From: Paecilomyces variotii | Lineage: Eukaryota | Length of the DNA stretch: 64,000 nucleotides | Direction: 5' to 3' (one strand) | Assembly: GCA_004022145.1 (NCBI GenBank) | Contig: RCNU01000006.1 | In this document: positions 15,771-64,000 of the stretch, piece by piece | How positions within the stretch are numbered: the first letter of the stretch is position 1 | Layout: the number at the start of each line of letters is the position of its first letter | Notes under the pieces: generated by a model | What the model saw: only the letters and a program-made list of their open reading frames with translations | The model's database searches: none | Told to the model about the DNA's origin: nothing | Made by a program: the position numbers and the translations under genes

Positions 15771-16139
15771 TGTAAAGAGCTAGGGTAAGAAAGCTCTTTA
15801 TCGGAGGTAACTAGTCGAATTAGTTAAACAGAATATGAGATAAGAGGTAGAGACACAGGCAAGTAGCCGTCTATATATAGTAGAGTTAAAGGTTAGGTTT
15901 AGTAGTAATTAGAATAAATTACTAATCCCTAACTTCTATTCTTTTAGGGATTATTTATCTGTCTATCTGTTTTATTAAGTTATTTAAATAACCTAGTCTT
16001 AATAGTTCTATCTATAACTAGCTGATTTAACTATTATATATAGATTTAATTATCTTATTATCCTTTATTATTTATCCTAAGTTATTTATTCTAGGTCTTA
16101 GCAGGTCTAGATTAAGTATTATAGCCCTAGTTTATAATA
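15771..16139 (-). repeat. Gypsy A 3' LTR
   Basis: Direct repeat of 30380-30748, differing mostly by C>T/G>A. Confidence 0.93.
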
Positions 16140-20800: not shown

Positions 20801-21076
20801 AATCCTTAATAATTAATATATAAGCGCAGTTTATTATCTTTTTTAAGAATAAAAATAATTAGTAATTTAGCTAAGCTAGTTAAAGCCTAGATTTAATCTT
20901 ATTATTATATATTTTCTAAATATCTTTATAATATATCTAGTTCTCTAATAGAATATAGGTATAAAGGCTCCTATAGCAGTAACTTACTATTAATTAAATT
21001 AATTATATAGGTCTTAGTATCTTCTGGTAAAAGTAATATTTTAGCTCCCTCTTCTAAGAAGATATCTTAGAATTAT

Positions 21077-30379: not shown

Positions 30380-30748
30380 TATAAAGAGCTAGGGTAAGAA
30401 AGCTCTTTATTAGAGGTAATTAATTAGACTAGTTAAACAGAATATAAGATAAGAGATAAAGATACAGGCGAGTAGCTATCTATATATAGTAGAGTTAAAG
30501 ATTAGATTTAGTAGTAATTAGAATAAATTACTAATCTCTAACTTTTATTTCTTTAAGGGTTATTTATTTATTTATTTATTCTACTAGATTATTTAAATAA
30601 CCTAGTCTTAATAATTCTATCTATAACTAGTTAATCTAACTATTATATATAAATCTAGTTATCTTATTATCCTTTATTATCTATCTTAAATTATTTATCT
30701 TAGGTCTTAGTAGGTCCGGATTAAGTATTATAGCCCTAGTTTATAATA
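30380..30748 (-). repeat. Gypsy A 5' LTR
   Basis: Direct repeat of 15771-16139. Confidence 0.93.
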
Positions 30749-32286: not shown

Positions 32287-35200
32287 TATTATACCCCTAG
32301 CTCCCCGCTAGAGTATAAGCTCGCAGGACTATAGCGAAGCCCTAAATCTGAATATAATACTAAGATAATTAGTTAAACCTCGCTTTCTCTACTTTTAGGA
32401 TTTATATAAGATAAAGCTGGGAAGTACTTAAGATTTAGAATATAAATAAGCTCTAGATTACTATTTTACTAGAAGCTAGTAATTTATTCTAATATAATAT
32501 ATACCTTATTATTTCTTTACTTATATAGACTCTTTATTATTAGAACCCTTCGGTATAGACCCTTTATTATACTAGTTAGACCCTTTATTATAATAATTAA
32601 CCCTTTATCTCGCTAGTAAACCCTTTTTTAAGCTAAATATATAAAGCTACTATCTCTCTTACTATAATTACTAGCAGAGTAATTTATTAATAATCTCTAA
32701 GAATCCCTGTTTCTTATAATTCAGATTATTTAACCTAGCAATATAAGTAGCAGTATTAATATACCCTATAACTCAGGGGATAAAGGTCCTAGTACTTAGC
32801 CTATAATATATACTTTAAAGGGTTTAAAAAGCGCTAAATCTAGCTTACAGTAACTAATTACTAAAGCTAGCTTATAAACCCTAAGAGATATTTTAATAGG
32901 CCTAGGGATAAAATAAGCTTAAATAGAAGATAAACTATTAATAAAAAGAGATCTCTTATAGCTTCTTACCGCTAGTTATATTAATAAGCAGCTAAAGCTT
33001 AAGCTGCTAAAACTGCAAAGATATAAAGCTACTATATTTAATGCCTATTACTAATAATACTAGTATATAAATAAATATTTAACTTATAATGCTTTATTAT
33101 TTAAAGATAAAGCTAAGAAAGTTACTTATACTATAGTATTACTAGATAGAGAATTAGCTTAGTCTTAGATTTACTAGCAAGAGAATCCTAACTTTTAGAT
33201 ACTAACCTAGGAAGAATTTAAGGGTTAATTGCTAGATTTGCTTAATAATCTATATTACTAAAAATAAAATATAATAAACTACTTTTATACCTTAATCTAA
33301 TATTCTAATTAAACTGCTTAAACTTTCTTATACTATTTTAAGTAGGCTTAAGCAGAGTTAAATTAGGGTAAAGAGTTTAATAATAATAGAATTATCTAAT
33401 TTTATATCTTCTACATAAAATTATAACTTAAGGTTTAAATAAAATTGCTGAACTATTAAGACCTCTTAATTAATCTTAACTAATTAGTATCTTTAGCTAC
33501 TAATTAGGAAATAAATTAAAAGAAGAATAAACTCTTAAATCTCTCTATTACGCTAAATATAAGTAGACTAATATAGAGTATGCTAAAAGACTCTATTTTA
33601 AGGTAAAAGAGGAAGGAGATTAATAACTAGTGCGAGGGGATAAATAAATTCTAGAAAAAAAAGTTTAAATTACTAGCAGAATAAGACTAGCTTAAATAAG
33701 AAGGCCGCTGCTTTAATTATAATAAAAAAGATTATATATAGAGGTTTAAATTATGCCTAAAAAAGAAAGATTCTCTTAAAAAAAAAAGCCCGAGATTATT
33801 ATAGCCCTTTATAATAAAGGGTTTAAGATAAATAAAAAGTCTTTATATATTCTAATATAACTTTACCTATCTAATAATATATTTAAAAATAAGGCTTTTA
33901 TTAATTTAGGTTTAGCTTAATACTATATTAGCTTAGATATAGCTATATAATATAGAATTCCCCTAGACTTCTAGCAATATATAAACTTTAAATCTATTAA
34001 TAGGCATAAGATTTAGAAGTATAGATTCTTTAAAACAGAGATCTATATTACTAATTTTAAAGGAACTATAGAGAAAACAGATATATACTTTTATATTATC
34101 TTAATATCTAAATTATTTATTATCCTTAGGAAATTATAATTATAAGCTATTAATCCTATTATAAATTAAGAATTAATAACTTAGAGATATTATATTCTAT
34201 AATAGCTATAGGTAAAGATTAAAAATATTTAATAATTCTCTAAGATAGTAAAAGGAGAAATAATTTATATACTCTATAAGGATTAAATTAACCCTATAGC
34301 CTTAAAGAACCTGCCTTTAGAATATAAGAAATATACAGAGGTTTTTTTAAAAAAAAAATAAGTATATTACCTGCTAAAATAAATAAATACAAGATTAAGC
34401 TCTTAGACAGTATAGCACCTCTATAGGGGAGACTTTATAATCTCTCTATTAAAAAACTTAATATTTTATATAAATATCTTAAAGATATATAATAAAAAGA
34501 GTAGATATAATTATTAATAAGTCTTATAGAGGCACTTATTCTATTTATTCTAAAGGCAGATAATATACTAAGGCTTTATATTAACTATAGAGCTTTAAAT
34601 AGTATTATTATAAAAAACAGATATTCTTTATCTAGAGTAAATAAAATACTTAACTAATTAGTTGGCTCTAAGATCTTTACTAAACTTAATCTTAGGGACA
34701 CTTATTATTAGATTTAAATCTGCTAAAGAGATAAATAGAAAATAGCCTTTTAAACCTATTATAAATATTTTAAATATTTAGTAATACTGTTTAGCCTATG
34801 CAATACGCCTGCTACTTTTTAAGCCTATATTAATTAGGCATTGCAGGGGTTATTAAATATCTATTACATTATATATTTAGATAATATTTTAATCTTCTCT
34901 AACTCTATTAAGGAGTATAAGAGATATATAATATAGGTCTTAGAGAGGCTATAAGAATATAAATTATATATAAAATTATCTAAATATAAATTCTATAAGG
35001 AGAATTAAATTCCTTAATTTTTTTATAAGAAAAGATAAAATAAAAATAGATTTTAGCAGAATAGAAACTATTAGAGACTAGCTAGAGCTTAAATTCTTTA
35101 AGAAAATCTAAATCTTCTTAAGATTCGCCAGTTTTTTTAAAAGATTTATCTACAACTACTTTATAAAAATAGCTCTCCTAATTAATCTATTAAAAGAAAG

Positions 35201-38200: not shown

Positions 38201-39800
38201 ATTAAAAGAAACTTCTTACTTAGCTAAAAGATAATAGGGCTATTTTTTATTATTATATTAATAATAGCAATAATAATAATCTTAACTAATATTTTAATAA
38301 TAATTAGTTTAGTCTAGGTCCTTATATTAATAACCTTCTTATATCTTATGCTTTATCTCTAGGGCCTTTTTATAATATAAATAAGAGTTACTTTTAGTTT
38401 AGCTATAATAGCTAGCCTAATAATAAAATAAGTCCTCTTCCTCTTTAGTAGGCTTTTTAGCGCTATTATTAAGTTAAATAAACTTATTTATATAATAGCT
38501 AAGACTATAAAAAAAGGCTAATTTAGTAGAGATATAAACCTTCTATATCTTAATTCTAGTATAATATTTGTTTTAGCTAATAGATCCTCTATAAGACCTA
38601 AGATAAATAAAGATATTAATCTATTAATAGCTATAAAAGAGGTAATATTTATTTAAAGAGGCAGTTTCTTTAGTATTATAATAATAGCTAAAGTCTTTAA
38701 TATCTTAGCAATAATTAAGAGATTATTTTCTAATATTATAGTAGTAACTAGATTTAGCTATATTATAATAATAATAGCTATATCCTCTATCTTAGAAGTA
38801 GAAGAAGGGGATAATTTCTTAAAAGGGGAGGTAATATCCTTAGACTATTAATACTATAAAAATTAGTATATAATATATAAAATCTTATACTAGAATATTT
38901 ATTTAAGGAGTCTTCTTATATTGTTTAGATATAAAATAAATTTAAGGCAGCATTATCTAAATTAAATTAGCTTATATTAATATAGTTAATTAAGATAACT
39001 TACCTCTAAAGCAGGAAGCTCTAAAAATTAATAAAAAAATAACTAATTTCTTAAGTTTAATAAATTATTATACTGTTAGTATAATTATAACCTTAAAAAT
39101 ATATCTAGATCTTTATTTAAATATATTTAAGATTAGGAGCTATATATAGTAGAAGGTAGGAAGATAATTACTAGGGATTAGAATTCTAACCTTATAATAT
39201 TATATAAATAATACTTCTAGTTTATATAATTTCTTAACCCTTTACTATAAAAGCAGTAAGAAGCTTTTTTATTTATTATATTATAAACCTCTATAAAGCT
39301 ATACTCTATATTCGATATAATAACTTTATAATGGCTTAAGGATAAGCTTTTAAAAAGGAGGAGAATACTATTATACCCTTAGCTCCCCGCTAGGGTATAA
39401 GCTTATGGGACTATAATAAAGCCCTAAATCTAAATATAATACTAAGATAATTAATTAAACCCCGCTCTCCCTACTTTTAGGATTTATATAAGATAAAGCT
39501 AAGAAATGCTTAAGATTTAGAATATAAATAGGCTTTAAATTACTATCTTATTAAAAGCTAGCAATCTGTTCTAATATAATATATACTCTATTATTTCTTT
39601 ACTTATATAGACTCTTTATTACTAAAACTCTCTAGCATAGACTCTTTATTATACTAGTTAGACCCTTTATTATAATAATTAATCCTTTGTTTTACTAATA
39701 GATTCTTCTCTAAGTTAAATATATAAAGCTACTATCTCTCTCGCTATAATCGCTGGCGGAGTAATTTATTAGTAACCTCTAGAAACCCCCGTTTCTTACA
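32287..39800 (+). mobile_element. Ty3/Gypsy family B, copy 2 (7514 bp), RIP-inactivated
   Basis: 432-bp LTRs at 32287-32718 and 39369-39800. TSD ATAAT. YLDDI at ~34874. Chromodomain-like EWEIEAILDK at ~37265. Colinear with the reverse complement of B1. Confidence 0.95.
37642..38466 (-). pseudogene. Antisense accessory gene of Gypsy B2, RIP'd
   Basis: Same length as, and alignable to, the reverse complement of 22411-23235. Confidence 0.7.
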
Positions 39801-41099
39801 ATAATCTTCTTTATAATATTAAAGATATTTTTAATTTTTAGTAGTTTAAGGATATCTTTAAGTAAGAGTTAAAGCTTATAAGAATTATATAAGATAAAGA
39901 AAGTAGTATTTAATCCCCTTATTCTCTATAGGATTATCTATACTAATCTTATAGTATTATAGGTATTATTAATAAAAGAGTTAATTTTTTTCTAGTTAAA
40001 ATTATTATCTAAGATTAATTTAATCTTTTTATATATTTAGTTTATAATTACCTCTATATTTATTATTTAAGATCTAATATCCTAGCTATAGTAATAGAAT
40101 ATATATTTGCTATTAATTAGCGAGAGGTTTATAATTTATTAATTGTATATATTAGTAGTAAACTAATTATATAGGTAGTTCGGTTCGGTTTAGGAGAGAG
40201 TTAGACTACCTATAGCGGGTTTTAGTTTAGGGTAAGAAAACTATACTTAAACTAAACTATATTCTGGCGGTTTAGTTTAAAACTAAAAAAACTAAAATAT
40301 TCGCTAAGACTGGGCGCTAAACTAACTTAAGTTAGATTTTTCTTAAACGGTTCGGTTTAAATAGTTTATACAGTTTATAGTATTAAAGGTATTAATATTC
40401 TATATTATTTTATATTATTATTAAATTTATATTCTTTTAAATCTATAGCTAAAAAATAGTTTAGATATAATATTATTATATTAAATCTAAAAGTATAAAG
40501 ATAGTCTTTTAAGATATTATTAAATATTAATATAGACTTTAAAATAATTATTATAGAAATATATATATATATTTATAAACTATAGTGCTAATAGAGTATT
40601 ATTAAATAATATATATAATTTATTATAAAAGCTAAAGTTATTAAACTAAAGAATAGATTTTATTTACTATTATTATTCTTAATAAAAAGTAATTTCTAGA
40701 TTATTCTTTTAATAAGTTAATAGTAAAATCTATATATAATTAGTAAGTTATAACTTCTATAGAAAATATATAAATTCTATATATTTATAAAGCTTACTAA
40801 AATTCTAACTTAAGTTTAAACTACTAAGATTATATTATTTTTATAGCTATTTTTTTTTATCTAAATATAGTTTTTAAGTTAAATATTATTCTTTTATAAT
40901 AGATAATCCCCTAATTAAGCTATTTAATGTAGCTATTCTATTGTAAATTGCAGATACTTATTTTGCCTCGATTTAGCTCTATTAATATAATACTATAATA
41001 ATAAAACTAAAGTCTTTTTTCTTACTAATTTCAAGAAATAATTCTATGCTAAAAAAAGAAATTAATATAATTATTTTTAGCTAAAATCTTGTAGATTAT

Positions 41100-44000
41100 A
41101 ATCCTAAATTATAAGATACTTTCCTTTACTATTTAAAGAAGTAATTAAAGCAATCCCCTAAATATGCTAGAATTATTTATCCTAAATTAAATTAGCTACT
41201 TATATTTTTATTAATGTATTAAATATAATAAACTAGATTATTTAATACTTTTTTGCGGTAGACTATAAGTAGAAATATATATCTTGCATATTAATATCAG
41301 GCAATAAAATTTACTAATTTGCCTTTTAAGTAGTATTAGGAAAAGAAAAAAAATAAAAATAAATATAAAGGTATTTCTTAATCTTATTAAGCTAAATAAG
41401 AAATATAATAATTTTAGATAAAGTAGTTTTAGGATTAGTAAAGATATTCTTAGGAATAATTAAATTAATCTTAACAATAACTATTATAACCTAGGGCTAA
41501 TATCTTTCTTTTTTAAAGGCGAATTGAATAAGATAGTTTTAAAAAAGAAATATTAAGATTTTATAAAGCAATAGTTAAAAAAAATTATAAGTTATTTATT
41601 ATTATAATAGCTCTAGATACAGAAAGTAGTTTAGATAAATAATTTAAGCTAAAAAAAAGCATTTTAATTTAAGTTAGAATATATTAAAAGATTATACTTA
41701 AAGTATTTAGCGCTATTTTAGCTATATTACTAAATAAACCGACTATTACCTATATATAACTTAGCCTATAAAGGAATAAGATAAATAATAAGTATTATAT
41801 GCTAATCTTTTAATTAAGTATACTTAATTAAAACCTAAGAATTTAAAGCATCTTTAAGATACTACTATAAGCTATTAAGAAAAAAATATAAGTAATAAGT
41901 TATTATAAGATATTACTAATAGTAGAGATAATAATAAATTAAATATATAATAGACCTATTTATAATTTAACTTAAGTTAGAATTTATAAATTTAGTCTTT
42001 AAAAAGTAGATAAAGCTTATTTATTTAATTAGCGGTAATTTTATTAATAATAGTTAACTAGAGCAGTAATAAAATAATTAATAAGGGAGCCTAGGGAGTC
42101 TCTAATATTATATACCTATATATATATAATTTCCTAATTAGGTATAGTCTATATTAGGAGTATATATATTATATTATTTTTTCTTTTATTATATTTATTT
42201 CTTTTATTAAATATACTTTTTAATAAAAAGAGTAGATTTTAATCTAGTTAGAATTTAATTAAGGAACTTTAAGTAAGGAATAGCATATAGACTAAATAAC
42301 AATCTAACTTAAGTTAGATTATTTTTAAGGATATAAGGGAAGATTATTATATACTACTATAAGTTACTAACCCTATTATAATTAAAATTCTAACTTAAGT
42401 TAAAGGCTCTATAACTTTACTTATTAGAGAGATAATATAAATAATAAAAGTATTTATTAGATAATAAGACAAATTCTCTAGAATTTTAGTATAGAGAACT
42501 TAGCTAAAAGCATTAATAAAAGAGACTTAAGGCTTATAATTATAGCAATTCTATAGAACCCTATTTAGATTTTAAGCTTATTTAGATTAATATACTATAT
42601 AAGCCGAAGGCTTATATAGCTAAGGCTAGAGTTTTCTTAATAATAAGAAATAATATAATCTATACAGAGCTTAAGAATAAATATCTAGGAATATTATATA
42701 TAAATATAAAGAAGCTTAAAATGTCTTAGAAAGATATAGAATATAATTAAGATATTAACACTAATTATATTAAAAACTTAAAGAATAAGTTCCGCATTAA
42801 TATACAGAGATTTAATATTAATATATAAATAAAAGCGACCCTAAATACTAAAGACTTTAACTTAATATTATAGGCATATATAGCAGAATTATTAGAACTA
42901 GTAAATATTAGTAATATCTATAGTCTCTTAAGGCAGCAGTAAGGTAGAGATAATAACTTTTTTATCTATTTAAAGAAATAGTTAGAAGGGCTTATATTGC
43001 TAATATTATAAGCTAGGCAATATTATTATATAGCTCTTCTAAAGCTGCTAATTAAATAGAAAAAAATAGCTATTATTAAAGCTATTAATTATAAAGGAAA
43101 GATAATTAAAAGACTATAGGCTAATATATATCCCTATTTTAATTTAAGTTAGAATTTAGCTAATTAATCTATAGGTATATCTCTAGGCTATTAACCTCTA
43201 TAATAAGGTAATATTATTAGAAGTTCTTACAGCATTATAATCTAATTATAAAGATATTACTTATATTAATATTAATAAAGAATATATATTCTTATTTATT
43301 AAGGAGTAGGAGAAGAAACTTATAGATTAATATAAGAAACTACTAAAAAACTATAAAAAGTTTAAAAATTAGGCGCGCCTTATTATTAGTATATTACTTA
43401 ACTATATAACTTATATTATAGCCCTTTTATATAATAATATTTAATTATAATATTTGCGGGAGTATTTATAAATAGCTTATAATTACTCTTATTAAAACTA
43501 TATATTAAGAGAGATAATTATAAATATAAAGCTAGATTAGGTATATTTAGGGATCTAATTTTAATTTTAATTTTTTAACTTAAATTAGATCTAGATTATA
43601 GAATTTAAGAAGTTTTTTAGCTTTATTAAGATAATCTTTATAAATAAGTAGAGTAGAGTAGTATTAGTAGAGGATTAAAAACTAATTATTAAATATTATT
43701 ATAGCGCGAGCAATTATACTTTATATATATTATTCTTTCTTTTATAGGCAGATTATAAAAATAATAGATTTAAGCTATCTCTAAATTATAGGTAGTTTAA
43801 TAAATAATTATTACCTTATTTAAAGATTCCTATACTATCTCTTAAGAACCCTATTTAATAACTATCTTTCCTTATAGCCCTACTAGATAAAGCATATATA
43901 TAAATATAGAAGAATGTTTTAGAGAATAGAGAACTTAAGTTCCCCTTATAATAAGTTCTAACTTAAGTTAGATATAAAAATTAATTATAAACTAATTATT

Positions 44001-45750
44001 ATAAGAGCTTATAGATTAATCTTAATAATAAAATTAGTCTCTTATTAAAATTTATGCTAAAATATATTATATTCTAATATAATCTAGAATAGTAATATTT
44101 TACTACAGCCTTTAAATATCTTTAAAAATTTTAGTAGATAAATAAATTTTAATATTCTCTCTTTTATAAGTCTAATAATATATATACTGCTAAGGGCTTT
44201 ATAGAAAAACTTATTAATAAGCTTTATAAGAACTCCCTATAAACCTAGGCAGATTTAAAGCATTATATAATAACCTTATTTAATTATAATTAGAATTAAT
44301 ACTAATATCTTTTAGCTGCTAGAACTATATAATAATCTCTATTTCTAAGATATTAAGGAATAAGATAGTTATAACTAATAGTATATATATCTTTCTTATT
44401 TTAAGCGGCGCTATTAAGCCTATATTCTCTATATAACTTCTAAAGCAATCTTACTTAACTTTAAGAGTATTATAAATTAATTTAATAATAAGAGCGAGAT
44501 TATAAGTCTAGATTATTTTAACTTAAGTTAAAATTAATATAATATAAGATAAATAACTTTCTATTTTTATTGCCTTTAGTAGTATTATATAATAAGCCTA
44601 ATTTTAATATAATAATATAGTAAAAAACTTAAGAATCTTAAAAGTTAATTAATATAAGGATAATTTAAAGACTTAATCTAATATTATTAGAGCTCTATAG
44701 ATATATTAATCTATTAAGAGAAGTATAGTTTATATTATAAAGCTTAGCTTCTTTAAGACCAATAATTATAAGAAGGATTCTAAGAATCTTATTAAGACTA
44801 AGGTATATATGCTATTAATCTAATTTAAGTTAAAAATTAACTTAATTTAAGAGGAATAATATTAGTGCTTATAGGCACTAAAAGAGATCGCCGATTTTTT
44901 AATTAAGTAGGACTGGGCTCTAGATATAGATAATATAAATAAATATCTGCGGCGCTTTATACTAGACTATAATCTTAAAATTAAGAATAAATATACTGCT
45001 TAAAAGAAGTTATATATACCTTTTTTAACCTTATTAAACTAACTGCTAATAAATAAATACTCTTATAATAATAATAAGGAATAATATAAGTTAAAAAATT
45101 AGAAATAGCTCTAAGCTATTATTTTTAATACCTTAAGGAAGAAATAGAAAATATTAAAGAATTCTATAAATAAATAAATTAATATATTTATTCTAACTAA
45201 AGTTAGAATAAGATTTAATTAAAATTCTAGATTAAGATATAGAGACTAATAAGGTAAATAATATATTTTAAAAGAATAGTATAGATAATAATAATAAAGG
45301 TAAATTATTTTTCTTATTAATTATATTATTAAATAATTATAATAATACTATTATTATAAGTATAAGAGTAAGGCTAAATTTTTAGTTTAGATTTAAGTTT
45401 TTTAGTTTAGCTTTAAATAAGCTATCTTAATAGTATTTGCTTAGTATATAAGAAACTAACTTAAGTTAGAAATAAAATAATTAAGTTTTTTTTAGACTAA
45501 TAATATAATCTCTACTTCTAAATTAAATTATTTAAGAGTAATTTTCCTTTAATAATAAGAACTTATATTATTTAGAAGCTTTATCTCTAACTTAAGTTAG
45601 AGTAAATTCTACTAATAGGATAGAAATTAGTTCTTAAAGATTTAATTTAAGTTAATATAGCTATTACTTCTTATTTCTATTTTAGGATAATAATTAGAGA
45701 TAAAAAAGCAGGACTATAAAGATAGGGACTATAGAATAGAAGAAAAAAAT
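41100..45750 (+). pseudogene. Multi-exon cargo gene(s) of the inner hAT, with ParB/DUF3723-like motifs; boundaries approximate
   Basis: De-RIP reading NRDIDxDHVKNLKxKF (~42745), LQAGQHRxxALL (43006-43041), then after intron 43126-43174 YLWAIDLYD...L..LRSN...DGE. A further coding-like exon EIADFLIKQDWALD lies at ~44885. Confidence 0.55.
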
Positions 45751-45949
45751 AGTATATTTTAATAATCTAGGCTAGCTCTATAGTAATCTGAGATATAAAT
45801 ATATTTAAGCAAGAATTTAACTTAAATTAGAATACTATAGATATTATGCCGCCGCCAATATTATTATTTTTAAATTTCTTCTTCTCCTTGCTTTACTCTA
45901 ATAGAGATATATTAGGATTATTAAGTCTTTTATTATAGTTTTAGAATTA

Positions 45950-48599
45950 TATTATTTATACTCTTATAAAGATTTATAAAACTTCTTTATCTTTAAATAC
46001 TAATATCTAGGATATAAATTTTAATTATAATCTTATTAAATAATATAAGCCCTAATCTAAAGCTAATACTCCTAACTTAACTAAACTTAAGATAATAAGA
46101 TATAATTAAGGAAAGGCTATTATCTATCTAGCTCTTCTAGAATAAGTTTAGATTTTTAAATTTTAATAAAATAAAACAGAATTTATAAAATAATAGTCTA
46201 AGTTTTAATAGATAAAAATAAAGACTTAATTATATATATAATAATACTATTAAGAAATTATAAATAATATTTTTAGTGTCTCTTATATATAATATTTATA
46301 TTGCTCTATATTTCTTTAATATCCTTATAAAGGAGGAAATAGTATTAGCTTAATAGCCGCCTATATAAAAAGAGCTATATACTAATCTAAAGATAAGACT
46401 TAGAAAAATAATAATATTTAAAATATATTAATTATAAAAGTAAGAACTAGGTAATTAATATAGACTTTATTACTAATATTTTTTTTAAAAAACTTTTAAT
46501 CTAATATATATATTAAATGTATTATATAATTAGATCCTGTATTTTATTATAGGATATTGCTAATTATTTTAAATAATTAAATATATTTAGTTCTGCTATA
46601 TGTTATATATAGCTGCTAGTAATTTATATCTAGAGTTACTTAACTAATATTAGATTTAAGCATGCCTTTTTAAATTTAAGGAGATTAATTATACTAAAAT
46701 ACTGTTATATTTATTAGAGTAAGGAAAGATTTCTCTAATATTAGATTATTAGACTAGTTAAAGTTAATATTCTTTTCTTACTATAACTAGATATTTTATT
46801 AATATAAAATAAGTATATAGGGAAGTACTCTTAGCCTTTAATCCTGTCTATAAATTATATACTAAAAAAAACTTAGCTAAAATATTACTAAAAAATCTTT
46901 ATTAATATAATTTATAATATCAAATCCTTATTATTACTATAAATAATATAAATAATAATATTATCCTAATAGCGGAGCTAGATAAAAGCCTAAAGGGTAA
47001 GCTTAAAATAGATTTATTATTAGAAGATTTCTAAGATATAATATTAAATTAACTTATTTCAAATTGCTATTATATTCTATATTTAGTATATGTTTTATAA
47101 CTTATAGTTAATGTTTTACTAAGTAAACTCTATATTAATACTCCTATTAATAATAGTATTAGTTAGAATATAAAAAAGGATAAAGGCCTATTATATTCTT
47201 AGGGTATCTTAATATTATTAAAAAAGGTATTCTCTATTTAACTTAAGTTAGATTAATACTAATAGATTTCTATATAGGTTTGCAAAATTATTAGATTTAT
47301 TAATATAAGCTCTTAGTATTAGGAATATTTCTTAATATTATAATAATTAAGTATTAGTTAGCTAAAATTATTACTTCTTAATTACTAGATATAATAGAAT
47401 TTAATATATCTTATACTTATATATACCCTTAAACTATATATAGTAATTGGACGATTTATTATATTATAGGCTAATAAAAATGTTTATTTTCTAATATTAT
47501 CCCCTACTAAATAATATTAGGTTAAATATCTTATTAAGTTAACCTGGCCATTTTATAATCTTACTCTCGCCGTATTAAAGATAAATAGTCTATTAGTTTA
47601 TAGGGTTTTTAAAATCTATAATACTATCTTTAATTATTTTAATAATTATATAGAGCATTTAAAATTAAAAAGAGCTGTATAGAAGATTTAACTCTAAGAT
47701 ACTTTATCTAAAGCTTATAATAAATTACGAACTTATTATACTTATATATATAAATCTTAAGGATTTATATATATAATTGCAATAATTCTTTACCCCAATA
47801 TAAAACTTAAATATTTTAAAATTTAGGTCTAGTAAGATATAATAAAAAACTAGTATAATACTTATAAAAAGATTTTTTATAAGATATTTTAATACTATAA
47901 TAATTAAAATCTAAATATTAAGGTATAATTAGGAATCTATTTATTAATCTTAACCTTAGATTATGTGTTTATATAATCTAAATATTATTATCTCCCTTTA
48001 AATATTACTAGTACTTATTAAGAAATTTAGACTTATCTTACTAAAGGTAATATTCTATCTAATATTATATCTAAATTATATAGTATTATTCTAACTTAAG
48101 TTAGATTAAGTTTATTAGAATTAGATAATATCTTTAACTATTAGAGAATTAATAAATACTAATTCCTAATTTTTATAATAATAGCCCGAGATTTTCTTAT
48201 AATTCTATTAAGTAGTATTAATATAGAATAATTATTTAATAATACCTGAAATATCTGCTATTACTAATATAGCTAACTACTTCCTAATATAATCTATACT
48301 TTAATACTTCTTATATATATTAAAAATTTTATTATTTAGCAGGAATTTAAGGTAATAATTAATAATATAGATATAATACCTAATAATTAACAATCTAAAA
48401 GGGAGGAGATTAAATCGCTAAATCTAATTAGTAATAATAAGGATATAGATAATATATTAGAAGGAGAAATAAATATAGATAATAAAGATTATTAGATAGA
48501 GCAGTTTAGGGGTTAAGGTCTTTTAAATATTTAAATAGATTAACCTATTACTAAATCTACTTATAATAAAAGAGAATAATTAGATAAATTACCTATACC
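45950..48599 (+). pseudogene. hAT transposase (Restless/Tfo1-like), RIP'd, with introns; start approximate
   Basis: De-RIP GKISLxLDCWTS...FLAxTGYFID...YREVLLAF...HTGENLA...ITTDNAxNN (46723-46960), IPCLAHVLQL (~47074), and YW...FP..MARDFLAIP.SGVGVERLFN.ARDICHYRR (48140-48270). Confidence 0.87.
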
Positions 48600-51500
48600 T
48601 ATTATAGTACTAGCATAGGAGATAGAGATCTACTAGTTAATGCTTACATAAGGCATTATGTAACCTCGCAAAGATATCTTCGACGCATAGCTTAATCTAA
48701 ATTTAAGCTCTTTAAGCTATATCTTATTTACTAAGCCTGCCTGCAACAGCCTATTCTAGTCTAAATTAGCTAAATAGAGATCCTATAGCTAATCCTAGTA
48801 TTAACTACCTTATTCTATTTATTCTGACCCGCTTCTTAAGCCTATACCTTAACACTATATAGCTTCTACCTAGGAGTTAATACTGTTAATAATACCTGCC
48901 CTAATTCCCCTATTCCTGCTAATAACTCTAGGAAAGTTTATTAAGCATATTACTGCTAGCTATAGGCCAGAATAGTATAATTATTATTGCCTGGCATATA
49001 AATATATTAATAAAGCTGAGACTACTGCGAATAAGATAAATTATTAGGCCGAGGTATATTTTTAAGAGCTTTAGTAAGAATTTACTATTATTTAACAGAG
49101 ACTTAAATAAGAAGTTATTAAACTTAAGACTATCTAGTAATATTAAAAGACCCAGCTCTAAGAAAAAGAACAGCAATATATCTAGACTATTCTTAAGAAG
49201 GATTAGGCCTATTATATAGTTATACCTACTGTAAATATATCTCTATTTATATCTAAATCTAAGCCTAATATTAAGAGGCCTATAACTACTCTAATAGGAA
49301 TATCTAAGATACTTACTACTATATCTTCCTCCGCTTTTAGATTTTTAGAAAGACTCTCTAACTTTAATAAGTTTAAAGGCGATTAAAAGGACCTTTAGCG
49401 CTTTATAGCCTAGATCTAAGGGAAAATAATAATTAACTAAGACTAATTCCCGATTTCCCAGAGCTGTATAACTTATATAATTAACCGCTTAAAGGGTACG
49501 CCCTATACCTAAATATTGCTATATATTAGAAATAGAACTTGCACTCTTAGTAACTACTAAGAGATTCTAGATATTTTAGAGCGTATATTTAGTAATCTTA
49601 ATTATGTAAATAATATATATAGCAAATTATTTAATCTCTATTAGATTAATAAAGAATTTAGAATTTTCTTTACTAAGTTCTAGTGCCTGGCGCTAGAAGG
49701 AGAAATACTTAAAGGAATACTATCTACCCTGCTTAAGTAAGCTATTAGTTAAGAACTCTGAGAAATATTATTATATAATTAGCCCCTAAATTATAAATAT
49801 TACTAGTTTATTAAATTCCTGTAAGATCTTAAGAACTGTTATTGCTAATATATTATAAACTAGCCCCCTATTATAAAGACTTATACTGCTATTTTAAAAC
49901 CTATTTAGCATACTTAATCTCCCTTGCCTGCTCTAAGTCTTGCTCTAATTATAAGATATAATAATTAGTCCTGGAGAAGCCTTATATAGAAGAGTAAATT
50001 AGCCCTGGCATAATTATATAACTTAATAAACCTAAGCACTTCTAAATACCCGGGCAAGAGAGGGTATAGCCTATTATACTATAAAACTAGCGCCTACTTT
50101 TACTGCGGCTTCTTAAAATATTATATTAAAGACTACCTATACTTAAATAACTGCTAGAAGATCTAGACTATAGCTATATATAAACCCTATCCCCAGACTC
50201 CCTAAGTAATCTAGTTCTTAAACTTATGTAGTTTATTCCCTAGCCAGTCTTTAATAAAAAGAATAAGCCTAAAGTAAGTTATAGCCAGGCTTAAGAACTA
50301 TATATTATCTAAATCTCTGCCGCTGTTATTTATAAAATTAACCTTAAGAAATACCTATAATAATTGAAATTAATAATACTATTTATAATATTAGAAAAGA
50401 AGAAGAAGAAGATTTACCTACTGATTTATGCCCTGCTTAATACTAGAGCTAAAAGATAAGAATTTATAGACTAAGGATAGGCTAAAGACTAGAAGTTAGA
50501 GCTTATCCTTCTAAAGAGCCTAATTACCCTATATATATTTAATAAAAGAGAATTAAAGAATAGGAAGATTATATACTATATCTAGATAGATATAAGAATT
50601 AAGGATTATTTTAAGAAAGATACTAAGTTCTATATTATCTAATTAGCGCACTACCCTATTATTCTAGGACTCTTCTAATTAAAGTACTATAATCTATATT
50701 TACAATTTGCCGCCTATAGTATTGCTTTTAATAGTAATTATTATTAAAAGAATTATAATATACCCTTAAAGCTAATTAAAATACCCGCCTTATATAATAT
50801 TCCCCTAAAGGCTTTGCCTTAATACCTACTCCTAAGACCTAGAGGACTAGAAAAGAGAAATATAGCCTTTATTTCTCTAGCCGCTTATTCTGCCTATACT
50901 TAAAAAAATGCTTAAATATTTATAATTATCCTAGAGGACCTAGATACTGCTCTAAGGATTAAATAAGTCTAAGAAGAAGACTTTGCCTACTTACTGCCCA
51001 AGGAGTTTAAGAATTATATTAATATCTTTTCTCCTAAGAAGGCTAAGCGCCTGCTATTATATTATTTTTATAATTATAATATTAAGCTACTAGAGGAGAA
51101 GTTACTCTCCTTTAAATCTCTATATACTATATTCTAGGATAAATTAAAGGTCCTAAAAGAATAAATTAAAAAAAACTTAAGAAAGGGATTTATCTATCTA
51201 AGCTTATTACCTACCGCATCCCTAATTTTATTTATTAAGAAGTCTGGTAAAGGAATATAGATTTATATAGATTATTAAGCCCTGAATATAATAACTATTA
51301 AAGACTAATATCTCTTACCTCTAACTAAGGAGACCCTAAATAACCTAAAAGGAATAAAGTATTTTATAAAGATTAATATTATTTCCGCATTTAATAACCT
51401 CTATATTAAGAAAGGATAAGAATACTTAACTGCCTTCTATATCTAACTTAGCCTATTTAAATTATTAGTAATATTATTTAGCTTAATAGAAGTACTAGCA

Positions 51501-54500
51501 ATATTTTAATAGTTTATTAATAATACCCTATAAGATTATCTTAATATCTTTTATATTATATACCTTAACAATATCTTAGTATATAGTATAACCCATTCTA
51601 AATATATCTAATATATCTGCACTATCCTGTAAAAGCTATATAAAATAAGCCTATATATAAAGATCTAGAAGTGCGAGTTTATTATCTCTAAGACTAAATT
51701 CTTAGGCATTATTATTAGCCGGGATTGTATTAAGATAGACCTAAATAAGATAAAAATAATTACTAAATAGAAGACCCCGACCTATATAATTAATATATAA
51801 GCCTTTATTAAGTTTAGCAACTTTTACTGTTAGTTTATTTATAACTTTTCTAAGATAATCGCACCGCTTATAAACTTAACCTAGAAAAGAATCCCCTTTA
51901 ATTAGATATCTGCCTATTAGTCTAGTTTTAAAGCCCTGAAAAAAGTATTTGTTTAAGCCCTAATCCTAAAACTATTTAACTGGACCTATAAGGTTATAAT
52001 TAAAACTAACTTATCTAACTATATATTAGCTAGAGTTATATCCTAATATAATAATAAAGGAATTCTATATTCTATTATATTTTTCTTAAAGAAGCTCTTT
52101 GCTATAGAGTATAATTATAAGATTTATAATAAAGAGCTGTTAGCAATTATCTGCTGCTTTAAAAAATAATGCCCTAAGCTTAAAAGTATACTATCGCCAA
52201 TTAAAGTTATTACAGACTATTATAACCTGAAATATTTTATATTAATTAAGCTGCTAAACTAATAATAGGCCTATTAATCTAAGTTTTTATCCTAGTTTAA
52301 TTTCTGAATTGTATACTAACCTAGAAGGTAAGAAATAAAGCCTAACGCCCTAACCAGGAGGTTAGAAAATCTCCTTAAGGAGGGGGATAAACAGCTACAA
52401 TATTAGAGCCAGACAGTCTTAAAGAAGGAGAATCTTAACCTATAGATTTAAAGATCCCTAAAATTAAAAGCTATTATTAGAAATTAAATAATAAGATATA
52501 TTCGCTTCGCTAATCTAATAGTTTAAAAGATTAAAAATCCTGCTAAATCTATAAGAATATCTGCCTAATCTGCTTTAAAAAATTAACCTATTTAGCCTAG
52601 AGAACCTGTCTAGCCTACCCTGCTGCCTAACTAGTCTATTAAAATTATTTAACCTACTGAGAAGATAATCTAGTCTATTAAAAAGACTATTTAGCCTATT
52701 AAAGAAATAGCCTAGCCTATTAAATAAAACTAGTTAAGTTCCCCTACTGCGCCCAATAAACTAAAATACTTGCCTAATATTAAAGACCTGCTAAATATAG
52801 CTTACTTATCTAATAACTTAATATAATTTATCCTGCAAGCCTTAGATTATAAAGCTAACTATTATTCTAAGATTACGCTAGCTAACTACTAGTAAAAAGA
52901 AAGATATCTATACTATAAAGACCGCCTATATATTCTTAACTATAATAAGCTAAGAGCCTGCCTATTGTAAGAATGCTATAATAAGTATATATTTAAATAC
53001 CCTAGAAAATATAAGCTTTATAATTTAATCTTACAAGAGTATTACTAGCTAAATATATACTAATATATAGACTATTAGACCCAGAATTACTATACCTGCT
53101 ACTATATTATACCCTTAAATAAAGGCTGCTAAGGAGTCTTATACTAGCTTTCTATCTCTAAATACTCTTAGTAAGATATCTTAATAGATTTTATTATTAG
53201 ACTTATATCTTGCTAAGGTTATAATGCTATATTAGTTACTATAGACTAACTTATAAAGATAAAATATTTTATTCCCTGCCAGGCTATCTGTAATATTAAA
53301 AGAGTAGCATAATTATATATTTACTATATATAGAAGCTTTATAGGCTACTAAAGATTATAATATCTAACTAAAGCCTTTAATTTATTGCTACTTTCTAGA
53401 AATACCTAACTTAATATTTAGATATTATAAACTTACTATTTACTACTTACTATCCTAAGACTAATAATTAGATTAAGAGGATAAATACTATCCTGGAACA
53501 ATACCTATATGCCTATATTAGCTATCTATAAGATAACTAGATTAACTAGCTATCTCTAGCTAAGTTCGCGTTAAACTCCTATTGTTCTAAGACTACTAAA
53601 ATATTACCCTTCTTTACTAATTATAGATTTTATCTATATATAGGATTTAAGCCTATCTAGCCTATAAACTAGCCTACTACTAGAGATACTAAAGCCTTTA
53701 CTAAAAAAATATAAGATATTATAAATTATATTTATACCTAGATTTATACTGCTTAAGCCTATTATAAAGAGCAGACTAACTACTGTTAAACCCCAGCCTG
53801 CTGCTACTATATAGGATAATCTATCTAATTAGATACTTAGAATATTTATATTTAGCGCCTCTAGAAGAAACTTAACTAGAAGAATCTTAGCCTATTTTAT
53901 ATTACTAAAATTATTAGCCTATATGCCTATTAGCTTAATCTACCTATCTTAATATATATCTATCCTATATTTAATATTAGCCTGCTTCGCCCTATTATTA
54001 AAAACCTTATGCCTAGATAAAGATAACCTTTACTACTGCCCGTTAAAGTTAATAGCCTTAAAGAATAAGTTATTAAAGATATCTTAGACTCCCAATAAGA
54101 ATATTATAAGTATAAAGGCCCCCGACTATAATATACTATTAAATAGTTAGGTTATAATAACCTAATTAAAGAGCCCATATATTACCTATAGTATACCCTA
54201 GAAATTATTACTAACTTCTACTACTACTATTTAAATAAGCTAAAGCTAGAGAATAGTCTTAATAAAGCTTAACCCTAAAGAGGGGAGTATTATTATAATG
54301 CCAGTATAGGAGATAGAGATTTACTAGTTAATACTTATATAAGGTATTATATAACCTCACGAAGATATCTTTAACATATAGCTCAATTTAAATTTAAGCT
54401 CTTTAAGCTATATCTTGTTTACTAAGCCTGCCTGCAATAGCCCGTTCTAGTCTGAATTAGCTAGATAAAGATCTTGTAGCTAGTCCTAGTATTAACTACC

Positions 54501-54545
54501 TTATTCTATTTGTTCTGACCTGTTTCCTGAGCCCGTACCTTAACA
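48600..54545 (+). mobile_element. Ty3/Gypsy chromovirus family C (5946 bp), RIP-inactivated, no accessory ORF
   Basis: 255-bp LTRs at 48600-48854 and 54291-54545. TSD ATACC. PPT AAAGAGGGGAG. Gag knuckle at ~50095, YLDDI at ~51561, chromodomain at ~54060-54230 directly before the PPT. Confidence 0.94.
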
Positions 54546-57206
54546 ATACCTAGAGTTTCTATATATTCTTAAAGGAACGCAGTAATTATAAATAAATCTA
54601 AGTCTTCTAGTTATTATTTACGCTAAATTAACTATATTAAAGGCTAATATAAATATTAAGAATCTAACTTAAGTTAGACTCTAATATTATATTCTAATAT
54701 TATTCTATTAATTTTTAGTTAATATTTAGTAATAAATATTATAAAGAAATAAAAATCTAAATAGTTCTTAAAGATTAATAAGATTTATATAAAAATTCAG
54801 ATTAATCTAAAGTAACTAAAAAAAACTAAAAAAACCGAATTAAACTAAAAAACCCAAAAAACTAAACCTAAAAAAACCATATAGTGCACTATAAACTATC
54901 AGTTCGGTTTATAAAGTCTATAAACCGTTCCGGTTTATAAAATTATAAACCGAACCAAACTATAGGCGGTTCGGTTCGGTTTAGTTCGGTTTTTTTAGTT
55001 TTCTATAACTACTCTAATTAGTAGTCTTATTATAAATAATATTTAGATAATTACTTAATTTTAGTATTATATTAATCTCTTAGAAAACTTATTTATAATA
55101 TTTATTTAAAATAAGACTTGCTATTATATAATAATTAAGAGGCTTATAATTTTAATCTAGAGCAGTAATAAAGTCTAGAATTATTAGTTCTATATATAGA
55201 TTAAAGGATCTAGTATTTGTAAAAATTAATATTTTATATCTTTAATTTAACCTATATCTTAATTTAAAAGCTAGAATATTAGCTAATAATAAGAATTATA
55301 TAGGCCTTTTAATTACTAGTTTAGGATTATAAATTGCTTTCTAAGATTTATAGCAGGTAAAGTATTTAGCTTAATAAGTAGTATTTTTTATAATCTTCTT
55401 ACTGTAGTAAAGGTATTATATTTATAGCTTAAAAAATAGTTAAATTAGCTAATAGTAGTATATTTAAATAAAATAGATCTTATTATTTTTAAGGAAGTTT
55501 TTAAATGCTTTCTAAACTTTAGTAAGATAAGCTCTGCTTTTAAAAGAGTTAGTATTACCTATTATTAATAGTTTTAGGGTATAGTATACTAGTTAGAATC
55601 TAAAATAAATATAAATATATATAAAATCAATAGCTTCTGCTTAAATTCCTAGTTATCAGGTAAAAAGTTTTATTAAATTATAAAAATAGGGCAATATAAG
55701 CATTTACACTTATCTATTGGTTAAACCTCTTGTTTAACTATCTACTTTTATACTAGCGTATTCCACTAATTAGTCTATGCGTTTTAAATTTTGAAACGAA
55801 AAAAAAGGGCGAAATTTCACGTTTCGTGAAATAGACCCCCCATTTCAATATTTCACCATCCCTAGCTTGGGCTATTGGCTGTGGGAGCGGTTGTAAGATT
55901 CCGAGGCCTCCGATGACAGGGATCGTTGATCCTTTATTCCGTGGATCGCCGAAATAGATCTACATACATGGTCTGCTCGATTTCCAGGGTTCCTTTTTCT
56001 CCCTTTCTTTTTTTTTTCTCCGAGACGACTTTGCTAAATTTTCTAGTCTGCCGGACAAGTGGGGAAGTACGAGTGTCTTACGCAAGTCTAGATAGCGGAG
56101 GTTCTTGTCCTGGTAGCGATGCACGCGACGCGAGGCTTTATGGATGCTCGAAATGTGGATGAATCCACTGGTACTTGCATGTACCCATGAGAAATTAGTA
56201 GACTAGAGAAAAAAAAAATGGTATAACGGAATCCCGCTCATGCCCAATATACGCGGCCCTAATGCTGAAGTTTCGAAATGAGGAAGATGAATTCGGCAAC
56301 CAGGACACCTCAGTTGATACGACCCAGACCATGTTGTAGCCAAGAGACGGATGTCTAAAATCTGGGAACCATAGTAAAACAACATGGATGGCATGCAAAA
56401 GACGCTAGGGTCGGAGATCATTTCTCATACAGCCTGGCATTGACCATCTGTATTCACCAATTTTTATTCCTCGGCGCACACCCTCGTTCCCAAAGAAGAA
56501 AAGCAAATGCGAAGTAATGCGCCAAGCGCCTGTGTCACCAAAAAGAACCAACCCGCCGGACACATGATCACCCACAGATTAACCTCATGAATTCCCGCTC
56601 CGAATAACGCCGGACAGTGACAAATGAAAATGAATCCACAGGAAAGACGGTAGAATATGTTTTGGATAATGTCCAGAAGTATGAAAAAGAGAAAAGGCGT
56701 CGAGCTAATGGCTTGCTAAAAAAGAGAAAAAGCAAATGGAATCACGGTAGCAGAAATATGCTCGGATTAGTGGCATGCAGCGCGGAGACCCGACTGCGTG
56801 CCTAGCAAGGCTGGACAGCATTGAAGCGCTGTGCTGAGCCTGCACAAGGCTATTACGAGGTCTCCGTGGCGGACGTGCAGTGCCTGATGTATTGGTCGGA
56901 ACCGACATATGGACAACCAAGCGCAGAGCGCTGGCCATCGAGTATATCTGAAGTAGATAATGATCGGTGTATACAAGGCCAACCGTCCAGTTCCAGTGGA
57001 TCGGGAGCCGGGTAACATCGGTCGCGGCCGCGATAATTAGATCATCATATACGTGGACCAGCCGATTCTGATCATACCGGTCATGGTCAATGCGTGAGGG
57101 GTATATGCATCCTGTCAAGGGCATGAAGAGGTGGTAGATGAGGTGATCAGAGGCGAAGTCGCGCGGACGCGAAGGAACAGCAGGAATGAGACGTGCTCTC
57201 ATGGTT

Positions 57207-62100: not shown

Positions 62101-63010
62101 GTAATTTACACCAGATATCTTCACAACACCTTACTCTTCATTCTATCAACTAGTTAAAAAACAAACTCTTATCGCCATCCACACTAGATAGACTAACTAG
62201 TCACTAGTATAAATACCCCCGATAAACACTAACCGTGTCAGATGCCAAACAGACACTACTCTACGTTCGTATACGAATTCTAGATAAGGTAACTAAGTCG
62301 TCTAACTATAACTAGTTATAACGACCTCTTCATAAGCAGTTCCTCTATAGTAGTACATACATACTTACTGGACTAGAGTAAACTAACTAACTACAGTAGT
62401 TAACTATCTACAGTACCTAGGTAGTAGTTAATCACCTAAAACCAGAGTAACTAACTAACTAACTAACTAGCTAAGTAGCTAACTAGCTAGCTAGTTAATG
62501 TGAGTGCTCATACATAAGCTCGATCAGCGGGCCCCATTCGAAGCGGGGTGATGACGTTGACTGTTAACATATCTCTGCTCTTCTCGGGTAAAATAAATCA
62601 TCAAGTAAAAGTGTCATTTTCTTCTTTTCCTTTCTTCTGGTCCTCTTCGCACGATAAGAGAAGGGAGGGAGGGGTAAACAGATGGTGGCAAATGAGTTAT
62701 TTTTTACTAGTACTTGCTTGCGTTTTTCATCTCGTGGTCTACGTGGGATGACGAGTACGCTTGCGATATTATTATTATTGATATTTTTGGTGGGTACGTA
62801 GATGAGTCATACGCGGTGTTGTGATGTTGTGATGTTGTAGGGAGTTAGAAGGATTGATGGATAGATACATGGAGGACGTGGAGTCTACCTTACGACGCAG
62901 TCACGTAACTTAAGTAGTCCAGTTTACGTATCTACTTGCGGTAGATAGATACTTCCCTCGTTAACTTATTACTTCTCAGTCTCCATTAGTTATTAAGCGA
63001 GGGCAAAGAG

Positions 63011-63063
<53 letters not shown>
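63011..63063. repeat. Poly-A tract, ~53 nt
   Basis: Seen directly. Confidence 0.95.
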
Positions 63064-63064
<1 letters not shown>

Positions 63065-64000
63065 AGAACCGACACTGACTGACGAGTCCTTTAGAAGCGG
63101 TGAGTAATGATCGTCTTCTTTTTACTTCCTTGAGAATCGAGGAGACGTAATCCTAGGGATATTTCGATGAACTAGTTTCTTTTAAATAGCGGGACATAGA
63201 TAGACGTGTTCTGATCCATCATGATTCATTGGAATTGTACCGTACTCTATCTATGATCTAATAGCTTTTCTTTCTGTGCTTTTGGGCTAGGACTTGTCTT
63301 TTCAAGGCAGCAAGCAGGTGTCATCGCCCGAAGAGGCGAGGGGGATGATATGCGTTTTCTATATACAATATGCATGCTTATATCTTTTAGTTCCCCATTC
63401 CGATTAGAGGAATTACGGTATACATGGGATTCGTCAAGATGTGTATTCGACAGACGTACTAGAATTTCGTGTTGTGAGGTTGATTTACATAGAGAGAGGT
63501 GTTTCTACGTGATGAAACTAACTAGGTAGGTTATTACCCGGTTTTGAGTACAGGTCTAGTCTATCATACTCTCTATCCTTGCGTTGGCGTCTTGGTTGAT
63601 GTGTGGTAGACCGCAATGGGTAGCTTTTGGCTATGTCGTGCTCGAATATGTTCTTGCGTTAGTGTTATTCATTGTCGCTGAAGTCTCGAGGGTAGGACGT
63701 CGTCTTCCGGTATGTACGGCTTTCGATTCAACTTCTCGTCGTTCATACATACTTCCCTGGTTACTGTACTCGGGACGGTTCTGCTGATACTGCAGTTACG
63801 CATGAACTGGAAAATAATTATATCCTATTTATAACAAAGCTTGTATATATATCATGAAACAAGCGCTTTTCTCTTCCCCTTTTCACTGATAATTCCATCT
63901 CTTCCAAGGCATGCAAATCTAAGACAGAATTTTAGAAAGAAACGCATTCAGGCATCACGGCATTAATCCCATCATCACAGAGGCCAATGCTCCTAATGCT

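Follow-up and report, generated by a model that had tools for sequence, protein, structure and literature searches.

A hAT transposon with a second gene upstream of its transposase in an AT-rich fungal locus

What does a hAT transposon hold when it is far longer than its known fungal relatives, and does the additional DNA belong to it? Autonomous fungal hAT elements such as Restless and Tfo1 are 3-4 kb in length, and to our knowledge hAT elements are regarded as one-gene transposons, with cargo-bearing ones such as ToxhAT seen as accidents. The 64,000-nucleotide stretch of fungal DNA analysed here (contig RCNU01000006.1; the window) contains an element that differs from Restless and Tfo1 in measuring ~8.9 kb and in having a second large gene upstream. 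With moderate confidence, we read positions 40159-55016 as one dead hAT copy of this size, with a transposase gene and an upstream accessory gene whose product would be of the DGQHR type. An initial annotation of the locus had proposed a large hAT element that carries, upstream of the transposase and on its strand, a second gene of several exons, and both the hAT domain matches and the accessory gene described below bear this out.

Ends, transposase and nested retrotransposon

The element and the retrotransposon that interrupts it comprise the following features.

40151-40158: left copy of the target-site duplication, ATTAGTAG, 8 bp, identical to 55017-55024
40159-40172, plus strand: left terminal inverted repeat, TAAACTAATTATAT, degraded
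40179-40357, plus strand: left subterminal patch with three TTCGGTT copies
40159-48599, plus strand: left hAT segment, before the nested retrotransposon
45846-48400, plus strand: hAT transposase gene (approximate limits); a candidate start codon (ATG) at 45846 follows closely on an intron-like ...TATAG
47227-47277 and 48083-48124, plus strand: candidate in-frame introns of the transposase gene, each holding a palindrome
48600-54561, plus strand: nested Ty3/Gypsy long terminal repeat (LTR) retrotransposon, 5.96 kb
48600-48868 (269 bp) and 54291-54561 (271 bp), plus strand: its two LTRs
~49366-49590, ~51237-51716, ~51921-52187 and ~53841-53996, plus strand: its Pfam matches, in the order gag, reverse transcriptase, RNase H and integrase SH3
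54562-55016, plus strand: right hAT segment
54833-54991: right subterminal patch with six TTCGGTT/AACCGAA copies
55003-55016: right terminal inverted repeat, TAGAGTAGTTATAG (reverse-complemented)
55017-55024: right copy of the target-site duplication, ATTAGTAG

The 8-bp duplication around ~8.9 kb described in the initial annotation is present, with imperfect inverted repeats just inside it: ATTAGTAG stands on both sides, and subtraction of the nested insert leaves 8896 bp (14858 - 5962). ATTAGTAG fits the hAT target-site preference nTnnnnAn. The left inverted repeat matches the reverse-complemented right end at 10 of 14 positions, and at 15 of 20 in purine/pyrimidine code, the repeats being blurred by repeat-induced point mutation (RIP). 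Two observations count against ends of this kind. In the 41-kb AT-rich block around the element, 873 position pairs combine an 8-bp repeat with an inverted repeat of at least 10/14, and the inverted alignment of the 300-bp ends lies only 2.7 standard deviations above random-chunk controls; the duplication and the weak inverted repeat alone are within chance expectation. The ends are nevertheless convincing because TTCGGTT/AACCGAA patches lie at both of them, with the transposase and an element-specific palindrome in between. Nine of the ten TTCGGTT/AACCGAA copies in the window are found 21-198 bp from 40159 or 25-183 bp from 55016. An 8-bp duplication, short inverted repeats with a YAG-like start and short subterminal repeats are also what Restless and Tfo1 have. 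A search within the window for an empty site, in purine/pyrimidine code, returned only scores of 81-94, which is noise level.

The high frequency of chance pairs would also suit a short hAT element occupying ~45.8-55.0 kb without the Gypsy insert, in which case the match at 40159 would be fortuitous and the cargo would be neighbouring repeat DNA. We consider this highly improbable. The TTCGGTT cluster at 40179-40357 mirrors that at 54833-54991, with nothing alike near 45.8 kb, and the palindrome family (40324-48093 and 54666) does not extend past the proposed ends.

The whole element is heavily mutated by RIP. The AT-rich block, 41 kb between the flanking genes (15-56 kb) with a GC content of 0.17-0.31, is RIP-mutated, and its host is Paecilomyces variotii or close kin. 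In the hAT segment the RIP indices are 1.34 for TpA/ApT and 0.26 for (CpA+TpG)/(ApC+GpT), compared with 0.64 and 1.31 in the flanking genes. The GC content of the left hAT segment is 0.188 (~19%), and the longest open frame inside the element does not exceed 104 codons.

The core of the transposase can be read in phase 0 from ~46640, the position of its stop being uncertain from RIP stops. When ten pieces of 120 residues were compared with Pfam, three matched, and the only families were PF14372 (hAT-like RNase-H fold; E=0.019 at ~47623-47874) and PF05699 (hAT dimerisation domain; E=0.014 and 0.024 at ~48127-48288). The matches are on the plus strand, colinear, in one frame and in the expected order, which is also that of fungal hAT transposases, where a hAT RNase-H-like insertion domain is followed by a C-terminal dimerisation domain. 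It should be mentioned that the scores, 15-16 bits, fall below the gathering thresholds of 21-27, a point against the assignment. At the DDE catalytic residues, as everywhere in the element, RIP changes D to N and E to K. The RIP-shifted strings LILDYXTS, XIXXNLIYLIL, ILYPNIKLKYF and SSINIEXLF, read by eye, were set beside D.WTS, TRWNSTY.ML, LDPRFK and SS..SER.FS, which we take to be the corresponding hAT blocks. On these domain matches the predicted gene can safely be assigned to the hAT transposases, and the placement of a transposase in the 3' part of the element in the initial annotation is confirmed.

That a true hAT domain scores only ~15 bits provides a gauge of search sensitivity at this level of RIP. 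Long read-through frames (with stops as X) from both strands of 40.1-47.6 kb, and nine pieces of 800-917 residues, gave no Pfam match; since such scans miss even the transposase, the lack of matches there says little. The read-through transposase likewise had no sequence match in the PDB, and a word-based homologue search scored none of 8000 candidates.

The retrotransposon that interrupts the hAT element matches the families DUF4939, RVT_1, RT_RNaseH_2 (E=1.3e-13) and SH3_Tf2-1. Its two LTRs differ by transitions only, and a polypurine tract, AAAGAGGGGAG, lies before the 3' LTR. Its 5-bp duplication is weak, being only RIP-compatible (ATACC/ATATT, with the LTR ending one base later). The Gypsy element is less mutated than the hAT element (GC of 0.279, or 0.28, versus 0.19) and therefore arrived later.

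The accessory gene and its palindrome-bearing introns

Upstream of the transposase, two stretches and three introns can be delimited.

42592-45069, plus strand: accessory gene, minimal proven extent; the ATA at 42592 aligns with the initiator Met of the protein P0008
43126-43174, plus strand: intron of 49 nt (ATATAT...TATAG) with a palindrome variant, at the gap between the two P0008 alignment segments, where the frame changes from 0 to 1
43541-43588, plus strand: intron of 48 nt (GTATAT...AACTTAAATTAG) with the palindrome at its 3' end, at a 16-codon gap relative to P0008
44803-44850, plus strand: intron of 48 nt (GTATAT...TTTAA) with a palindrome variant, at a 16-codon gap relative to P0001 and P0005
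40400-42590: ex-coding stretch, with purine-N-pyrimidine (RNY) phase 0 and then phase 1; five exact palindrome cores and RIP variants (e.g. 41666)

Exon-like frames on the transposase strand had been claimed in the initial annotation for this region, and two lines of evidence uphold them. RNY periodicity, which is insensitive to RIP transitions, has a phase typical of coding DNA, shifting in places, across most of 41.1-45.9 kb. An exhaustive phmmer search with the frame 42451-45000, read with stops as X, recovered four proteins (P0001-P0004) among 1.84 billion representatives, and the named ones are hypothetical proteins from strains of P. variotii (Byssochlamys spectabilis). A follow-up search with P0002 added P0008 (368 residues) and P0009. 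By tblastn, residues 3-368 of P0008 align to 42598-43131 and 43178-43792 (E=2.5e-90), and residues 48-205 of P0001 to 44566-45069 (E=1.3e-36). The gene is thus real and present in several copies, and it probably runs on to ~45.6 kb. Exhaustive phmmer can recover RIP-saturated genes through less-mutated paralogues where Pfam, PDB and word-based searches fail.

To evaluate the differences between the window and these proteins, each mismatch was scored by whether C>T or G>A changes alone could turn a codon for the residue in P. variotii into that of the window. This holds for 80 of 82 and 79 of 81 mismatches to P0008 in the two aligned segments (159/163; 13% by chance), for 53 of 67 to P0001 and for 29 of 38 to P0009. 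In the alignments with P0008, each of the 22 stops of the window copy stands opposite W, R or Q. Judged from these substitutions, the window copy is the RIP-mutated twin of P0008, with an estimated likeness of ~99% before RIP, and this points to a family that was duplicated recently; P0008 can therefore represent the unmutated product. The family comprises at least three distinct copies in P. variotii, with P0009 more diverged. The gene models of P0001, P0005 and P0006 continue, at residues ~194-221, into Gypsy pol (window 51786-51869, E=3e-4). As these models read, a Gypsy element in the P0001-type copy adjoins the cargo at the equivalent of ~45.07 kb, a nesting different from that in the window. 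A metagenome contig scan with P0008 gave 36 pattern matches, of which none was confirmed.

The ex-coding stretch at 40400-42590 may represent 5' exons, or else a third gene carried by the element in the opposite orientation. Fewer stops occur on the minus strand at 41.5-42.4 kb, and nine pieces of the stretch had no Pfam match.

A 16-bp palindrome, TCTAACTTAAGTTAGA, often extended to AATCTAACTTAAGTTAGATT, is dispersed over 40324-54675.

40324, 40807, 41969, 42306, 42392, 43932, 43960, 44520, 45458, 45589, 47240, 48093 and 54666: starts of the 10-bp palindrome core
42303, 43957, 45586, 48090 and 54663: starts of perfect 16-mers

All 13 copies of the core (0.32 expected) lie inside the hAT element, with none in the nested Gypsy element or in the other 49 kb. 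The perfect 16-mer has five copies versus 0.04 expected, even with each A/T allowed its pre-RIP alternative, and none in host genes. The flanks of the palindrome are not conserved. It is found in all three verified cargo introns, at two places in the transposase region, in the left subterminal patch (40324) and 3' of the transposase (54666). Its presence in the cargo gene, in the transposase gene and at both ends marks these as parts of one entity, whichever role the palindrome may have, and no other result speaks as strongly against an independent insertion as its distribution.

Alignment to the P. variotii proteins leaves exactly three gaps, each of which starts with GTATAT or ATATAT and ends with TAG or TAA, so that they look like short introns. 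Counting the candidate introns of the transposase gene, both genes hold several introns of 42-51 nt with one common palindrome, unlike the fungal hAT elements Restless and Tfo1. Two readings of the palindrome remain: it may be a shared intron core with a branch-site-like CTAAC, or it may represent a set of binding sites that is retained outside the coding sequence. The palindrome does contain CTAAC, which is the consensus of fungal branch sites. We see an even chance that the palindrome is only a splicing feature (CTAAC plus a TTAG acceptor), or a mark of related, introner-like mini-introns, and not a site for protein binding. All three introns verified against P. variotii proteins hold it, and it makes up the 3' end of the intron at 43541-43588. 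In the other two verified introns and in both candidate transposase introns, however, it lies in the middle or the 5' half, and another branch-like site and an acceptor follow it downstream. In addition, no known coding sequence holds the copies at 40324, in the left subterminal patch, and at 54666, 3' of the transposase, and 23 kb of host genes contain no copy even in pre-RIP-degenerate form. In introner-like elements, several short introns of one region share a near-identical core. The introns described here differ from these in that only 16 nt are shared and the introns are 42-51 nt long; within the window the motif is confined to one transposon, where it also occurs outside known introns.

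It is noted that the 49-nt intron has a 6-nt flanking direct repeat (ATATAT ... GTATAT, within 43120-43185), which leaves two equivalent placements of its borders. The intron at 43541-43588 is flanked by a near-repeat of 9-11 nt, CTAGATTAG / CTAGATTATAG. These flanking repeats may reflect intron gain by insertion or coincidence. A further proposal, that each palindrome is a +1 frameshifting insertion, was ruled out, as neither of the two copies in the transposase region shifts the frame.

The remaining question at the level of the element is whether the accessory gene is a passive passenger without a role in the hAT element, either a gene captured from the host or mobile DNA of separate origin that inserted there, comparable to the passenger genes of ToxhAT or Pack-type elements. 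Cargo-bearing elements bounded by hAT ends do exist, as described for ToxhAT, a 14-kb transposon of wheat pathogens (10.1101/2024.03.04.583430). Moreover, the 2.1 kb upstream of the accessory gene (40.4-42.6 kb) has no gene assignment, nor do 43.8-44.55 kb and 45.07-45.85 kb; the accessory function is one that we infer; and the co-mobility of the two genes is read from the DNA of a single copy. These points speak against a single two-gene element. We nevertheless regard a passenger as unlikely. No host-type homologue was found: in word-limited searches P0002 returned P. variotii proteins only (three of 2055 'near' candidates), and a 'longer' search matched none of 6703 candidates. The intron palindrome is common to the accessory gene, the transposase gene and the end regions. 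The two genes are on the same strand, their GC content and RIP level are alike (GC of 0.18-0.21 across cargo and transposase versus 0.28 in the Gypsy element), and a comparison in purine/pyrimidine code revealed neither an internal LTR nor a pair of long repeats. The initial annotation had raised the alternative of a cargo with termini and a target-site duplication of its own; none were found, with a detection power that is low in RIP-saturated DNA. One transposing two-gene unit is thus well supported, though not proven.

In the reading that we favour, the RIP-mutated AT-rich block contains a dead copy of an autonomous ~8.9-kb transposon of the hAT superfamily. Its DDE transposase (~45.85-48.4 kb) would cut at the short inverted repeats and reinsert the element with an 8-bp duplication. 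Upstream, on the same strand, the intron-rich accessory gene (at least 42.59-45.07 kb) would encode a protein with a DGQHR-type domain, most likely DNA-binding and possibly nucleotide-dependent, with the DNA of the element itself as its target. The element-specific 16-bp palindrome, sitting in short introns, would be common to the two genes and the two end regions, and the 5.96-kb Ty3/Gypsy retrotransposon would later have split the copy.

Nature of the accessory protein

P0008 contains the strings RDINADHIKNL at residue 53, RQRQ at 114, AGQHR at 141 and WAINLYN at 182. RIP-mutated motif strings are located in the window at ~42750, 43012 and 43184, and the codons at 43012-43026 (plus strand) read A-R-Q-Y-Y, the RIP-mutated form of AGQHR, a DGQHR-type signature. 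Among 18,950 NCBIfam models the top match is TIGR03187, the DGQHR domain, for both P0008 (E=1.1e-4, 22 bits) and P0002 (E=6.9e-4, 19.4 bits), with profile position 104 aligned to the G of GQHR in both proteins. The DGQHR domain (TIGR03187/PF14072) is described as characterising the DndB superfamily by a QR pair, a near-invariant DGQHR and FxxxN, and as being similar to DUF262/GmrS, a ParB/Srx-fold domain (PMC4619093). In P0008 a QR pair is 26 residues upstream of GQHR and a hydrophobic-xxxN, INLYN, is 37 downstream, which follows the order described for the domain. The order QR, AGQHR, INLYN has A for D and I for F, and the pairing with QR and FxxxN is our own reading and not alignment output. 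The accessory protein is, on these matches, a probable member of the ParB/Srx superfamily in its DGQHR branch (DndB/GmrS-type).

A number of results weigh against this assignment. The scores of 22 and 19.4 bits are far below the TIGR03187 cut-off of 58.85, coverage is partial (residues 142-333 of P0008, corresponding to positions 104-256 in a profile of 276), the near-invariant D of DGQHR is exchanged for A, and the matches of P0008 and P0002 are not mutually independent. PF02195 (ParBc), PF14072 (DndB) and PF03235 (DUF262) had no match at E<=10 for P0008, P0002, P0001 or P0009. Sequence searches of the PDB with window pieces, P0002, P0008 and an alignment profile gave no match or chance-level matches (E of 0.2-2.5) and no ParB chain. 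AlphaFold2 reached a mean predicted local distance difference test value of 38.0 with a six-row alignment and 39.5 with the single sequence, too low for a fold. The protein also differs from known DGQHR proteins in being eukaryotic, spliced and transposon-borne. A Pfam comparison of thirty pieces of 120-140 residues from the cargo region gave chance-level matches only (DUF5487 and DUF1647, E of 0.035-0.15, for three pieces). The description of the cargo as ParB-like in the initial annotation thus survives in a sub-threshold form, as a DGQHR domain, and not as ParBc.

The same annotation had linked the cargo protein to DUF3723, on four motifs reconstructed from the RIP-mutated sequence. Three are present unmutated in P0008 and in order (RDINADHIKNL, QAGQHRRAAL and LWAINLY); the fourth, DGE, has no exact match, only TDRE by eye. 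A feature search of the ESM Atlas with P0002 placed PF12520 (DUF3723) clusters at ranks 1 and 3 (score 0.93) and in seven of the 30 nearest matches. The protein may accordingly be seen as a true but divergent DUF3723 member, in which case DDE and tyrosine-recombinase elements would share an accessory module. We hold this to be a doubtful, if possible, explanation. The profile of PF12520 had no match at E<=10 for P0008, P0002, P0001, P0009, P0003, P0004 or the thirty window pieces, whereas members normally score strongly, and the claim is not supported at this level. The features shared with the two clusters, 149 and 144 of 256, are under the 170 typical of true members (nine in ten), and the C-terminal part (P0001) had no usable match in the Atlas. 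In the literature searched, no paper was found that names both DUF3723 and ParB, or both a hAT transposon and ParB, and the only functional remark found on DUF3723 likens it to SMC (TIGR02168; PMC9156397). DUF3723 from the language-model search is therefore taken as a lead only, and an accessory family common to hAT elements and Starships is unproven.

Related systems and surrounding DNA

DUF3723 is described as an auxiliary gene of Starship elements (PMC9156397, PMC11162782). Like DUF3723 genes, the accessory gene is fungal and associated with a mobile element, and PF12520 clusters are its nearest named clusters by language-model features. In contrast to Starships, the element described here has a predicted DDE transposase. 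The tyrosine-recombinase captain (DUF3435) had no Pfam match on either strand of 40.1-47.6 kb or on the plus strand of 47.5-55.3 kb, at the low sensitivity of such searches in RIP-mutated DNA.

The element shares with ToxhAT, as the latter is described, a large size, hAT-type ends, non-transposase genes and a RIP-prone ascomycete host. The passengers of ToxhAT are reported to be a virulence effector and unrelated genes, whereas the second gene here appears to be DNA-acting and has features in common with the transposase gene. The closest parallel for a ParB-type protein in a DDE transposon comes from brown, green and red algae, where such accessory genes are reported and proposed to bind their own element (PMC12477816). 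According to that report the algal elements are Sola transposons with the accessory gene on the opposite strand, in contrast to the fungal hAT element with both genes on the same strand. The algal proteins are also reported to have a DNA methyltransferase domain. None was detected in the window, where half of the protein is known only in RIP-mutated form and a scan for DPPY-type methyltransferase motifs gave only palindrome-derived strings.

DndB is reported to bind palindromic DNA motifs (PMC4507180), a precedent for the reading of the palindrome here as a set of binding sites. It is conceivable that the DndB- or ParB-like protein and the palindromes, at least 13 in number, constitute a parS/ParB-like self-recognition module of a fungal hAT element, which would mark, bridge or shield the 9-kb element, and that the protein is a distant relative of Starship DUF3723, one accessory toolkit serving both cut-and-paste and tyrosine-recombinase elements. 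We offer this as speculation and consider it quite unlikely as a whole.

No report was found in the literature searched of a ParB- or DGQHR-type accessory gene in a hAT element or in a fungal DDE transposon, and a ParB/DndB-type protein as a transposon accessory has so far been reported only in algae. The second gene here looks built into the hAT element, having an element-specific intron motif in common with the transposase gene. If other copies confirm this, the role of accessory proteins in a eukaryotic transposon could be addressed by experiment at this locus, in a mould that can be transformed and has Starships of its own, and one could ask whether the DUF3723 proteins of Starships have the same fold.

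In several sequencing runs of one organism, 0.67-0.73 of the sampled words of 40159-48599 are present, and in others 0.19-0.43. In some metagenome runs from food fermentation and grain the share is 0.18-0.34. These shares are not taken as evidence of where the element or its strains occur. No match came from scans of the element region for Rfam families and tRNAs.

Ordinary fungal genes (aldo/keto reductase, Fungal_trans_2, SWIRM and amidohydrolase) occupy the two ends of the window. The AT-rich block between them contains three direct-repeat pairs, detected in purine/pyrimidine code.

15771-16140 and 30380-30750: 369 nt, spacing 14.6 kb
21075-21510 and 28164-28600: 436 nt, spacing 7.09 kb
32285-32720 and 39367-39802: 436 nt, spacing 7.08 kb

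These pairs are probably the LTRs of further, partly nested, RIP-mutated retrotransposons that form the remainder of the block. Homopurine/homopyrimidine tracts of ~60 nt are present in the gene-bearing flanks at 835-900, 5791-5850 and 63005-63070.

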